Assembly: GCA_951406725.2 (NCBI GenBank)
Contig: OX597834.1
Location: 15,624,001-15,688,000 of the forward strand
From: Octopus vulgaris
Taxonomy: Eukaryota
Direction: 5' to 3'
DNA length: 64,000 nucleotides
Shown: piece by piece, positions 9,090 to 45,363 of the stretch
Layout: the number at the start of each line of letters is the position of its first letter
Position numbering within the stretch: position 1 is the first letter of the stretch
Made by a program: the position numbers and the translations under genes
Notes under the pieces: model-generated
Databases searched by the model: none
What the model was told of the DNA's origin: nothing
The model's input: only the letters and a program-made list of their open reading frames with translations

Positions 9090-9363
9090 TTTAACAATTA
9101 AGGATAACCTCTTAATAAGGAATCTTAACAAGAAATTATCAGGTAGTTAGCGTGAAAAACCTCATAAGAGAAAAAATTCGAAAAGAATTTTTTTCTTTTG
9201 AACATATTAATCATATTGTATAGAGGGCATTATTACACATAAATGCCTCACACTAAGAGGGACATAAGTCATTACTACCAAAATTACACTAATTTTGGTA
9301 GTAATGACTTATGTCCCTCTTAGTGTGAGGCATTTATGTGTAATAATGCCCTCTATACAATAT
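9090..9363. mobile_element. (TA)n-embedded insert ending in a perfect 74-bp-arm palindrome (Penelope-like remnant, inferred)
   Basis: 9213-9286 is the exact reverse complement of 9290-9363, loop cac; TA tracts on both sides. Confidence 0.6.
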
Positions 9364-9404
9364 ATATATATATATATATATATATATATATATATATATA
9401 TATG

Positions 9405-9616
9405 GGTGTGTATATTTTGTGTTTGTCCCTACCAATGCTTAACAACCGGTATTGGTTTTCTTATTCTCCGCAACTTAGCGGCTCGGCAAATAGAAACCCG
9501 TTGTATAAGTAGCAGCCCTAGGAAATGTACTAGGGTCGATTCGTTCAGCTAAACACTTCTAGGTGGTGCCCCAGTATGGCCGCAGTCTAATGACTGAAAC
9601 ATGTAAGAGATAAAAG
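9405..9616 (+). mobile_element. SINE family A, 3' half (diverged)
   Basis: acttagcggctcggcaaa...ggccgcagtctaatgactgaaac. Confidence 0.75.
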
Positions 9617-9656
9617 ATACATACATGTATGTGTGCCTGCCTGATAGGTAGATGGA

Positions 9657-9912
9657 TAGATAGATAGATAGATAGATAGATAGATAGATAGATAGATAGA
9701 TAGATAGATAGATAGATAGATAGATAGATAGATAGATATGTAGTAGATAGATAGATAGATAGATAGATAGATAGATAGATAGATAGATAGATAGATAGAT
9801 AGGTAGGTAGATAGATAGATAGATAGATAGATAGATAGATAGATAGATAGATAGATAGATAGATAGATAGATAGATAGATAGATAGATAGATAGATAGAT
9901 AGATAGATAGAT
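9657..9912. repeat. (GATA)n microsatellite
   Basis: Seen directly. Confidence 0.98.
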
Positions 9913-10404
9913 AACTTTAGGAAGATAGCCCGTATTTGGAGATCTAAGGATTTCCGGAGTAACACTACTACACCTATTTCTTTACTACCCACAAGGGGCT
10001 AAACACGGAGAGGACAAACAAGGACAGACACACGGATTAAATCGATTACATTGACCCCAGTGCGTAGCTGGTACTTAATTTATCGACCCCGAAAGGATGA
10101 AAGGCAAAGTCTACCTCGGCAGAATTTGAACTCAGAACGTAGCGGCAGACGAAATACTGCTAAGCATTTCGCCCGGCGTGCTAACGTTTCTGCCAGCTCG
10201 CCGTAACACTACTACACCGCCACCCGCTCCTGGTCGACCAGAAGAGGAGAATAACTCGTAGTCTTCCTTCGAAAATGGATGCTAGAGCGTGTTTTCCGGA
10301 GATTTTTGTTTCACTAATGGTAGCCACGTCCAAATCAAGGGACCTTGCTTCAAGGCTGATCCCAGGACACGCACATTTACACACCCCATTCTCAGCACAG
10401 CCAT
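9913..10404 (-). pseudogene. L1/Tx1-like LINE AP-endonuclease N-terminal fragment, split by a SINE
   Basis: Manual translation: MAVLRMGCVNVRVLG...LDVATISETK...[18 protein letters not shown] and GV..L motifs; reading continues across the SINE. Confidence 0.6.
9975..10202 (-). mobile_element. Full-length SINE family B with 16-bp TSD
   Basis: gtaacactactacacc at 9959-9974 and 10203-10218; body gactttgcctttcatcctttcggggtcgataaa. Confidence 0.92.
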
Positions 10405-10516
10405 GTTTGTCATAGAAAGAAAATGGGGTGCTTACTCACCTTGGTTTTCGAGAAACCCGAAAGTTCCAGGCTTCTCTAATGCGGCAATATAGCATTTGTT
10501 TCTAAGACACACAAAT

Positions 10517-10765
10517 GGGGGAACGTGGTTTAGTTGTTAGGGGTGTTGGATTCGTGATAGTAAGATTGTGGTTTCGATTTCTGAGCCGAACGATGCGTTG
10601 CATTCTTGAGCAAAATACTTCATTTCACGTTGCCCCAGTCCATTCAGCTGGTAAAAATGAGCAATCCTTCGACGGACAGGCGTCCCATCCAGGGGGGAAA
10701 ATTTCAAACGCCAAAGAATCCAGGAAACCGACCTTATGTGTCTATATGACTACGGAGGGGACTTT
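10517..10765 (+). mobile_element. SINE head D + tail Z (diverged)
   Basis: Homologous to 35598-35860. Confidence 0.78.
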
Positions 10766-10854
10766 ATCCACTTTTTCTAAAGCACGAGAACAGGAGTTGC
10801 AAAGGAAAAATGGGATGCGAAATTGACCTTTGAACTGAGAAGTAAATATACAGA

Positions 10855-11257
10855 GTGGAGGCGCAATGGCCCAGTGGTTAGGGCAGCGGACTCGCGGTCA
10901 TAGGATCGCGGTTTCGATTCCCAGACCGGGCGTTGTGAGTGTTTATTGAGCGAAAACACCTAAAGCTCCACGAGGCTCCGGCAGGGGCTGGTGGTGATCC
11001 CTGCTGTACTCTTTCACCACAGGTGATCCCTGCTGTACTCTTTCACTCTTACTTCCTGTTTCTGTTGTACCTGTATTTCAAAGGGCCGGCCTCGTCACTC
11101 TCTGTGCCACGCTGAATATCCCCGAGAACTGCGTTAGGGGTACACGTGTCTGTGGAGTGCTCAGCCACTTGCACGTTAATTTCACGAGCAGGCTGTTCCG
11201 TTGATTTGGATCAACCGGAACCCTCGTCATCGTAACCGACGGAGTGCTTCAAAAAAC
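10855..11257 (+). mobile_element. tRNA-derived SINE, head C + tail X, 10-bp TSD
   Basis: tggcccagtggttagg A-box, gtttcgattccc B-box; aatatacaga at 10845-10854 and 11258-11267. Confidence 0.9.
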
Positions 11258-11361
11258 AATATACAGAAAATATTCTTCCTCGGGTTATAACGATTTTACC
11301 AGCTTGCGAACCTAATAATAATGATAATAATAATTTCAAGTTTAACGTCTAAATTGATAAT

Positions 11362-11766
11362 ACTCTCTTTTACTCTTTACTCTTTTACTTGTTTCAGTCA
11401 TTTGACTGCGGCCATGCTGGAGCACCGCCTTTAATCGAACAACTCGACCCCCGGAACTTATTCTTTTGTAAGCCCAGTACTTATTCTATCGGTCTCTTTT
11501 GCCGAACCGCTAAGTAACGGGGACATAAATATACCGGCATCGGTTGTCAAGCAATGCTAGGGGGACAAACACAGACACACACGCATATATATATACATAT
11601 ATACGACGGGCTTCTTTCAGTTTCCGTCTGCCAAATCCACTCACAAGGCTTTGGTCGGCCCGAGGCTATAGCAGAAGACACTTGCCCAAGGTGCCACGCA
11701 GTGGGACTGAACCCGGAACCATGCGGTTGGTAAACAAGCTATTTACCAGACAGCCACTCCTGCGCC
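11362..11766 (-). mobile_element. Full-length SINE family A with ~46-bp flanking duplication
   Basis: Reverse complement of 6267 copy; flanks 11316-11361 and 11769-11814. Confidence 0.92.
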
Positions 11767-43060: not shown

Positions 43061-43178
43061 TACAGTGTACGTTTAAACACATAAGAGATGACCATAACAG
43101 GACATCTGACTCGCTAGAAAGTGTAGATGTCAGATGTCCTGTTATGGCCATCTCTTATATGTTTAAAAGTACACTGTA
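43061..43178. repeat. Inverted repeat, 50-bp arms, abutting (TA)n
   Basis: 43061-43110 vs 43129-43178, about 3 mismatches. Confidence 0.88.
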
Positions 43179-43209
43179 TATATATATATATATATATATA
43201 TATATATAT

Positions 43210-43420
43210 ATCTTGTTTCACTCATTAGACTGCGACCATGCTGGTGCACCGTCTTGGAGAATTTTAAGTGAATTTAATCGACCCCAGAACATTTTGATAA
43301 GCTTGGTACTTATTCTATGGTTTCTCTTGCCGAACTGCTAAGTTATGGGGATACAAACATACCAACGGCGGTTGTCGAACGAGGTGGGACACAAGCACAA
43401 AGACATACACTCACTCACAC
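43210..43420 (-). mobile_element. SINE family A 3' half (diverged)
   Basis: cttgtttca..cattagactgcgaccatgctgg. Confidence 0.72.
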
Positions 43421-43498
43421 ACACATACATACACACCTATATATATATATATATATATATATATATATATAGAGAGAGAGAGAGAGAGAGAGAGAGAG

Positions 43499-43580
43499 AG
43501 GCACATGACCTAGTGGTTAGAGCAGCGGACTAGCGGTCGAGGGATCGCGGGTTCGAATCTCAGAACCGGGAGATGTGTGT
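43499..43580 (+). mobile_element. SINE head C fragment
   Basis: tagtggttagagcagcggac...ggttcgaatctcaga. Confidence 0.75.
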
Positions 43581-43995
43581 ATACTGGTAGAATGTGTTTA
43601 TAAAACATCATTTTGTCATGGCTTTATTGAGAAAATTCTATTGTTTGTAAGTTATTTGTTGTTTTTTCTTCAATTTCTGCAATTTCAACCAATCAAATAC
43701 GTCTATTGAGTTAAAAAGCATTCTGTGCCGTATGAATATGTCCCTCGTTTAATAAACAGATTGAGTTTATTTACATTTCTGAAGAAAAAAAGATACCCCT
43801 AACCCTAACCAACCCTAACTAATCCTAAAGCAGATTGAAATACAATAGATCGATACTAGGGTCATAATTATGGGTGACAATTTCATATGACACCGCTAGA
43901 AAAACTGCCGTTCAAACCGAAAAAATCCATATATATATATATATATATATATAAATTGATCAAAATAAAAATAAAAACATGAGGCGAAGGATTCA

Positions 43996-44073
43996 GCGGT
44001 ACATATGTTTCGGGCCTTTATTAGACAGATTTATAACAAAGCATAATGTATGTCTGTGGCCTTCTTCAGCCGC
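43996..44073 (-). ncRNA. Type I hammerhead motif (mirror copy)
   Basis: Reverse complement of 44210-44287. Confidence 0.72.
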
Positions 44074-44209
44074 GCACAACAGCTTCCACAAGGACATGTG
44101 TTACATCAAAAATTCTTGGTTGGGGATGCAAATCCTCTCGTTCACGTACGACATAATGCGGCAGCAGCATAGAATTGAAGCGTCCATCTCTTTCTTCTCG
44201 CTGTTGTGC

Positions 44210-44287
44210 GCGGCTGAAGAAGGCCACAGACATACATTATGCTTTGTTATAAATCTGTCTAATAAAGGCCCGAAACATATGTACCGC
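44210..44287 (+). ncRNA. Type I hammerhead motif
   Basis: gcgg CTGAAGA a ggcc...ggcc c GAAA catatg TA ccgc; A.C mismatch at 10.1/11.1. Confidence 0.72.
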
Positions 44288-44512
44288 TGAATCCTTAGCC
44301 TCATGTTTTTATTTTTATTTTGATCAATTTACTCCACCACCTACACCACCAAACGGTATACACAGGTGCTTATAATTATCAAGTACTCACCCCGAATTTC
44401 TATATATATATATATATATATAAGATTAAATAATAAGGGTAGAAATTGATATTAATCAATTAAAACCAGTGGTTTAGCATATTTTTAAAAAATACGAAGA
44501 TTAAAAATTGTT

Positions 44513-44698
44513 ACATACAAAATTAAGAGGAATGACCACTAAAGTGGACACCTAATTTGCTAAACATAGACGTCAAATCGCCATTACCACGAAGTGTATG
44601 TTCTCAAGAAACACACTCTTCGTGGTAATGGCGATTTGACGTCTGTGTTTAGCATATTAAGTGTCCACTTTAGTGGTCATTCCACTAATTTTTTATGT
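44513..44698. repeat. Inverted repeat, ~82-bp arms, within a (TA)n-bounded insert
   Basis: 44513-44594 vs 44618-44698, a few mismatches. Confidence 0.9.
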
Positions 44699-45363
44699 AT
44701 ATATATATATACAGTATATATATATATATATATATATAATTTAAAATTAGAGCATTTAACGCTATTCGAACGCAACACCCCTTGCATTTCAACCTCGTTT
44801 CTGTTGACACTACATTTTGTGTAATATGTCTCAGGATAAATTACTCGAATGTTTATCCGTAAGAACATATTTCCTTCTCTTCCTTTTTTGCTCCTAGCGC
44901 GCATGCGTTGCGCTTTCAAGTCCTTGTTTACTCTCGTTAATTGCAATATCGCAGGGAAATTAAATTTGTCTTCTAGTTTCCTCTCCCGAGAGAGGCATAC
45001 CTTATCTAATTTGCTCTAACCATCTTTATAACCTTTTAATAACTTAATTTACGATCCGCGAATAATTGGAAATATAATATTCATCTGTTGACGAACAATT
45101 TAGAATTTAACGACAAAGAATGTACGATCTGGATATAGCAGCCGCATCGAAGTCTTAGACTTCCAGGAGTTTGCCTCTTATTACTTCCTTTTGCTTCCGG
45201 TTAATCTTAACCCTTTTGCGTGTCGGTATTTCAATGGATATCTAAACTGTATCGAAATCATGGCCTTCTGTAAGTACCCTTACCCTGCTTCCTTAAATAT
45301 TATAACAATTTTTTAACGCACTTGAATAATCTATGGTTGTTGAGAAAAACTTAGTCGTAGGTA

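Follow-up and report, generated by a model that had tools for sequence, protein, structure and literature searches.

We analysed a window of 64,000 nucleotides (nt) of the Octopus vulgaris genome (contig OX597834.1, forward-strand positions 15,624,001 to 15,688,000; positions below are those of the window). It holds nine inserts, A to I (Table 1). The best explanation overall, with a probability of about 0.85, is that these are ends of Penelope-like elements (PLEs) of the Hydra clade together with passengers of the protein of these elements, which combines a reverse transcriptase (RT) with a GIY-YIG endonuclease (EN). An earlier note, made from the sequence alone, had proposed a many-family set of Penelope-type retroelements that bear hammerhead ribozymes and lodge in (TA)n tracts. 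This proposal was upheld, and three families extend into RT and GIY-YIG; the term 'mini-elements' had to be dropped for three of the nine inserts, which are stumps of elements of 4–6 kb. The description of the inserts as mostly unrelated in sequence also holds only in part: E and G are 70–86% alike, and the tail of B is similar to 5' regions of further Hydra families. Genome queries of the source genome (2.8 Gb, rich in microsatellites) were run with A, B, C, D, E, F, H, and I, and 40 matches were scored per query. Each of these families proved multicopy rather than single-copy, with 954–3,064 candidates per query; G had no genome-wide query of its own.

B, F, and H are the 5'-truncated 3' ends of autonomous Hydra-clade PLEs. 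A search of extended copies, as the earlier note had suggested, found RT and GIY-YIG for B, F, and H and found no transposases. In all three parents both domains lie in a single frame, as in EN-containing PLEs. The H unit is 4.4 kb long with a frame of 842 amino acids (aa), in which GIY-YIG is C-terminal to the RT; the whole frame is open at four places, and many copies are 97–100% identical across the RT query. The motifs RIRW, DKT, YRDD, CxCX5C, GIY/YIG, CxxC, and CxH, with no CCHH, are all found in H and in two other Hydra families (L321 and L323), the RW motif continuing with A, R, or K. RW, YRDD, and the linker motifs were seen in F, and DKT in B. The F family has an RT 44% identical to that of H and an EN upstream of the F sequence. 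A long copy of B (L418), representing a parent of more than 6 kb, carries an RT (56% identity), an EN, a long 3' untranslated region (UTR) whose end is B sequence, and a B arm in inverted orientation. The other Hydra families (L321, L323, and L324) display Asn-rich linker expansions, open frames of 980–1,090 aa, and complete pseudo-long terminal repeats (pseudo-LTRs). RT identity of the several Hydra families to H is 44–65%, and the 3' UTRs of the Hydra units are 1.5–3.4 kb long. Partially tandem pseudo-LTRs, 5' truncation, an inverted 5' copy, and a tail at one end were all found for B, F, and H, and a type I hammerhead is present in their pseudo-LTRs as a sequence motif. A Pfam scan of the H protein gave no RT or GIY-YIG match; HTH_animal, GIY-YIG, and RVT_1 occur on some members of the atlas neighbours. 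The H frame is covered by contigs of four runs, presumed to be RNA, which show neither ends nor strand nor level. A repeat of about 330 nt with telomere-like hexamer runs lies beside H (43595–43928), and a close copy of it interrupts the B hammerhead in L418.

No RT was detected for A, C, D, E, G, and I, which are hammerhead-family repeats and likely passengers copied by the RT/GIY-YIG protein of the Hydra elements. A, E/G, and I are retrozyme-like. E occurs in tandem with a period of 453–474 nt in seven distinct loci and A with a unit of 471 nt in one locus, while I occurs as a permuted unit of about 500 nt (L192); as in retrozymes, each of these short units has one type I hammerhead. In a comparison with Hydra proteins, no match was found inside A, E/G, and I units. 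C and D, in contrast, are about 205 nt long with a mostly fixed 5' end, and tandem organisation was found in none of 70 C loci and, as short tandems, in 2 of 20 D loci. D is among the commonest families, with eight matches in a random 600 kb of the genome. One family C fold-back occurs with its flanks at at least eight places (L346, L348, L377, L378, L380, L381, L384, and L401), either through capture by a different mobile repeat or through duplication. Within C, antisense to the hammerhead, positions 27113–27125 resemble a Pol III B box, and a weakly A-box-like stretch lies about 45 nt away; this may be chance.

Several observations weigh against the reading of the inserts as Hydra ends and passengers. 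Placement in the Hydra clade was based on motifs and a by-eye match to published Hydra proteins. The units measure 4.4 kb or longer and do not follow the Hydra trend toward less than 3 kb, a length that is described as a trend and not as diagnostic (PMC8557442). The 69 D-like motifs of the fetched loci included no long copy that could be a parent of D, and no parent was found for C, whose 5' end is fixed. Fold-backs of D are nearly absent (two secondary hits among 40 loci), and together with its minimal hammerhead this scarcity may point to another PLE clade. A piece of Hydra RT adjoins one of 29 E loci, in an ambiguous arrangement. Finally, the hammerheads of H and F are not the lowest-energy folds in minimum-free-energy folding; those of E and D do form hammerhead stems.

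Table 1. Inserts, their parts, and fold-backs in the window.
Feature	Position	Strand	Description
A	9089-9360	-	3' end of ~470-nt hammerhead monomer; long end at 9089; inverted arm 9290-9360
B	22865-23117	+	3' end of autonomous Hydra element; inverted arm 22865-22948
B forward arm	within 22865-23117	+	3' half of hammerhead, then ~85-nt tail
C	27064-27291		two-armed copy of ~205-nt element; outside (TA)n
C hammerhead remnant	27143-27186	-	G3-C8 core; 5' strand of stem I absent in window copy
C target-site duplication, 12 bp	left 27052-27063, right 27292-27303	+	
D	27715-27918	+	~205-nt element; minimal hammerhead 27790-27817, A6U
E	39484-39885	+	most of ~454-nt hammerhead monomer; full-motif hammerhead 39676-39759
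F	42146-42990	-	end of autonomous Hydra 3' UTR; 42146-42895 aligned to long copies
F hammerhead	42389-42515	-	U4C, loop II 100 nt
G	43001-43176	-	two-armed end, diverged relative of family E; window copy without hammerhead
H inverted arm	43954-44199	-	ends at short terminus; hammerhead 44069-44000
H forward arm	44200-44400	+	hammerhead 44214-44283, ~70-nt tail, long terminus against (TA)n
I	44423-44697	-	3' end of ~500-nt permuted hammerhead monomer, plus inverted arm
Six fold-backs	9216-9360, 22865-23025, 27058-27235, 43063-43176, 43954-44329, 44514-44697		masked self-comparison

Fold-backs were located by masked self-comparison of the window, unmasked repeat finding being dominated by microsatellites, and all six long inverted duplications described previously were recovered. 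With a strict type I descriptor, three hammerhead motifs were found in the window (39683 and 44214 on the forward strand, 44069 on the reverse strand), compared to none in 200 local dinucleotide shuffles; the latter two are the arms of a single insert, H. The motif at 42393 (reverse strand) passes only if a loop II of up to 100 nt and U4C are permitted. Among the hammerheads proposed before, those at 39683, 44214, 44069, and 42393 thus stand as full motifs, but the one at 27790 has a changed core (A6U) and the one at 27146 is incomplete, its stem I 5' strand having gone at the fold-back junction of C. The window copy of B retains just the 3' half, and those of A and I have lost the hammerhead through truncation; it is present in longer A and I copies. 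The stem III palindromes agree with those listed earlier (ctatgcatag, catatg, cagctg, cgatcg, acgt, and aatatt). An Rfam scan of the window gave no hammerhead family among the matches listed (150 of 562), which were mostly microsatellite matches to miRNA models. In a random sample of 60 evenly chosen 10-kb stretches (600 kb, 0.02% of the genome), 12 hammerheads were detected, compared to 0–1 per shuffle in 10 shuffles; when covarying cores were permitted, 18 were detected compared to three in eight shuffles. Extrapolated from this 0.02%, the genome would contain roughly 50,000–80,000 hammerhead motifs. Further hammerhead families absent from the window were seen in L005 and in the random loci L234, L248, L264, L266, and L289, the one in L264 being tandem with a spacing of 455–490 nt.

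In the core of family C the catalytic C3-G8 pair is reversed to G3-C8. A 22-nt pattern spanning this core had 5,534 exact matches in the genome, compared to none for the control. The same context with C at position 3 had 35 matches, 32 of which are unpaired single changes. Stem I, of 7 bp, and stem II, of 5 bp, both form in the lowest-energy fold of family C, and three stems surround the Watson-Crick 3-8 pair, as expected for a type I hammerhead. Sister families with a homologous tail have C3-G8 and U3-A8 cores and paired changes in stem II; such covariation between stems had been put forward as a check on the proposal. Across the three sister families, the 3-8 pair is G-C in seven, U-A in five, and C-G in four sequences, which, coming from three families, represent about two covariation events and not 16 independent cases. 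In the U3-A8 sister family (L104, L107, L179, L260, and L287) stem I is only 3 bp long; among the 18 motifs of the random sample, U3-A8 cores were the most frequent (six). Natural U3-A8 cores, an extra base between 9 and 10.1, and a palindromic helix III have been published (PMC3088659, PMC4209133), and G3-C8 is known as an engineered, partly active double mutant (PMC11167929, PMC3884650). A literature search found no natural G3-C8, key papers and the figures and supplements of PMC3088659 and PMC4209133 being outside its reach. G3-C8 is likely a new natural ribozyme core variant, and the family C hammerhead is predicted to cleave. In D, 38 of 39 copies of the main loop type carry A6U; the abundance of D despite this change suggests that cleavage is dispensable for its spread.

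Eight of the nine inserts have a (TA)n tract of at least five units within 17 nt on both sides, so that the setting described by the earlier note applies to all but C, for which the nearest (TA)n lies 398 nt away and a 12-bp direct repeat occurs instead. The suggested test for TA enrichment gave a positive result in the random sample, where 9 of 12 hammerheads lie within 300 nt of (TA)6, compared to a background of 23.8% (P = 3e-4); likewise, 13 of 18 family matches in the 600 kb are near (TA)6, compared to 11.8%. The inserts hence display the (TA)n insertion bias of Hydra elements. At 22 of 60 independent family C loci there was no (TA)4 at a junction, the sites being AT-rich, and 15 of these 22 show target duplications of 9–14 bp, which fit staggered nicks. 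At 18355–18599 and 22552–22835, further seemingly unique sequence lies between (TA)n tracts; neither stretch had a match in the random 600 kb.

Two fixed 3'-type ends, 55–120 nt apart and downstream of the hammerhead, characterise each family, together with variable 5' truncation. In H, both ends are downstream of the predicted cleavage site, the long one by 117 nt, and the forward-arm tail of about 70 nt is the start of the 5' UTR of the next unit. For family C, loci were picked by a pattern inside the hammerhead; 70 were fetched and three duplicates dropped. Among the remaining 67, 38 were two-armed, with long and short ends in 36, a long and a shorter end in two, and matching ends in none; with the eight shared-flank copies collapsed, 29 of 31 independent two-armed copies combine long and short. 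The 29 single-armed copies end at the long (19), the short (7), or another site (3). Of 25 two-armed copies of H (spurious low-complexity pairs excluded), 23 combine long and short and two have a shorter second arm, and the pattern recurs in A, B, E, and I; it counts against these data that the end counts for A, B, E, H, and I are biased, as the queries held particular ends. In three of 13 informative family C pairs (L347, L357, and L359) the two arms differ by multi-base variants of loop II, a count close to the four expected under random pairing, and we infer that two separate RNAs are used at least sometimes.

The protein of a Poseidon PLE cuts and extends both target strands, and its RT starts at two internal, tail-bounding sites (PMC11167929), which the two fixed 3'-type ends match. 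In the proposed mechanism, the RT/GIY-YIG protein would nick AT-rich DNA, in most cases (TA)n, and start reverse transcription there. Each of the two cut strands would be primed at its own start site, frequently with a separate RNA for each, and head-to-head joining of both cDNAs would result in a fold-back. We give this origin of the fold-backs slightly better than even odds. Hammerhead cleavage is probably not required at the insertion step, because the cleavage site is read through in all copies; a function in regulating or processing transcripts at a different stage is possible. A single cDNA might instead fold back and copy itself up to the short terminus, giving the inverted arm, which we consider possible but less probable. 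In 27 of 29 to 33 of 34 pairs (duplicates included) the two arms match in their major subfamily markers, and the H copy L007 has a private change common to both arms; both findings fit a single template and speak against two RNAs, and near-perfect hairpin centres in L017, L022, L028, and L029 add to them. Folding back of one cDNA is opposed by the arms of different variants in the three pairs named above, by single-armed copies that terminate at either site, and by tail-less arms that often extend further 5' than the tailed arm (the window copy of H, L020, and L076). It also appears rather unlikely that hammerheads cut and re-ligate the RNA into a circle that is the obligatory template (model of PMC4209133 and PMC7229834). 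Such a circle would agree with the tandem or permuted 450–500-nt units of A, E, and I, with full-length H copies (L070 and L327) that are permuted units across the cleavage site, and with the covariation of core and stems, but the fixed 5' end and missing tandems of family C and the wide distribution of D with its A6U argue against it, and ribozyme mutants left Poseidon insertion in vitro unaffected (PMC11167929).

The remaining alternatives concern the target and the class of the inserts. If any AT-rich DNA served as target, the (TA)n tracts would have grown later from element ends or target duplications; the family C loci lacking a junction (TA)4 and the several element ends that merge into TA-like bases point in this direction. 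We regard this as improbable: tracts flank both ends, truncated 5' ends included, in young, 99%-identical H copies, and almost every Hydra family is listed with a preference for (TA)n (PMC8557442). TA flanks and long inverted repeats would also be expected of fold-back elements or miniature inverted-repeat transposable elements (MITEs), cut-and-paste DNA transposons with terminal inverted repeats (TIRs) inserted at TA. However, the arms are unequal, one being without tail, the inner ends vary, duplications are 9–14 bp long, and the parents of B, F, and H encode RT and GIY-YIG; if fold-backs stem from two-strand priming, they are not TIRs. We found neither equal TIRs nor a short fixed duplication nor a transposase parent, and rejected this class as highly improbable.

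Other repeats were present in the window. Tandem arrays of 77 and 104 nt occupy 46017–46446. We take 28270–29514 to be a Tc1/mariner-like element with 33-nt TIRs and a broken transposase-like frame (28626–29177), and 12245–12820 to be a mariner-like piece with 28-nt inverted ends. Presumably, 13736–14299 is a piece of an RTE-like long interspersed nuclear element with a 162-nt duplication and 40454–40789 a CR1/L2-like 3' piece.

Elements of this kind are already known: the literature covers their hammerheads, preference for (TA)n, 5' copies in inverted orientation, and tails, as well as a Hydra family of octopus; while the earlier note could not tell whether they had been described in the lineage, Hydra-1_Obim is in print for octopus (PMC8557442, Files S1/S2). 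Palindromic helix III hammerheads in pseudo-LTRs, opposite-strand pairs, truncated solo copies, tails, and (TA)n bias have likewise been published (PMC8557442, PMC4209133). The Hydra clade, including Hydra-1_Obim, shares with the families described here an RT with C-terminal GIY-YIG, DKT, RW, and CxCX5C, and the lack of CCHH, and also a hammerhead near the 3' end, (TA)n, an inverted 5'-truncated copy, and a tail at one end (PMC8557442). In contrast to that account, we found several distinct families with units of at least 4.4 kb and intact young copies, tails of 55–120 nt instead of 30–40, and a loop II of up to 100 nt. Hydra-1_Obim is listed from few copies and by eye is unlike H. Non-LTR retrozymes, low-GC tandem units of 150–450 bp with one type I hammerhead, are thought to derive from PLE ends (PMC7229834; bioRxiv 10.64898/2026.07.22.740005). 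A, E/G, and I fit this description but occur for the most part as dispersed monomers and as fold-backs within (TA)n, and C and D differ in being short with a mostly fixed 5' end; the available portions of these two papers do not mention octopus. Anolis Poseidon PAc shares the two tail-bounding RT start sites, the cutting and extension of both strands, and the AT-rich target, but belongs to another clade, and inverted arms from different sites or RNAs are not reported in the portions available (PMC11167929). With the published natural core variants family C shares 3-8 covariation, U3-A8 but not G3-C8 being reported in what was available of those papers (PMC3088659, PMC4209133). A search of the literature on Penelope-like and Hydra hammerheads in octopus or cephalopods gave no account of a radiation at comparable scale; a squid genome paper lists 235 hammerheads, and both hammerheads and Hydra go unmentioned in the main text of a recently published repeat annotation for octopus (PMC13282606).

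New here are the family with the G3-C8 core, likely as a natural ribozyme variant, the long-plus-short end rule with mixed-variant arms, and the genome-wide hammerhead estimate. The origin of inverted and tailed Penelope insertions and the role of the hammerhead are described as open questions in PMC8557442. We tentatively suggest, as a possibility with the odds against it, that O. vulgaris ranks among the animals with the largest hammerhead radiations, intact Hydra elements being the driving force, and that it has a working natural G3-C8 ribozyme at more than 5,000 sites; its fold-backs would record an undescribed integration step in which a two-RNA complex primes the two strands of the cut target at different fixed start sites and joins the resulting cDNAs head to head. 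The intact young Hydra frames, the short passengers, and the strict end rule make questions of insertion and ribozyme function testable in vitro. The G3-C8 family shows that descriptor searches overlook whole families, and the repeats described here are likely mislabelled as MITEs, short interspersed nuclear elements, or unknown. A natural G3-C8 core, if true, would complete the 3-8 covariation set of the hammerhead.

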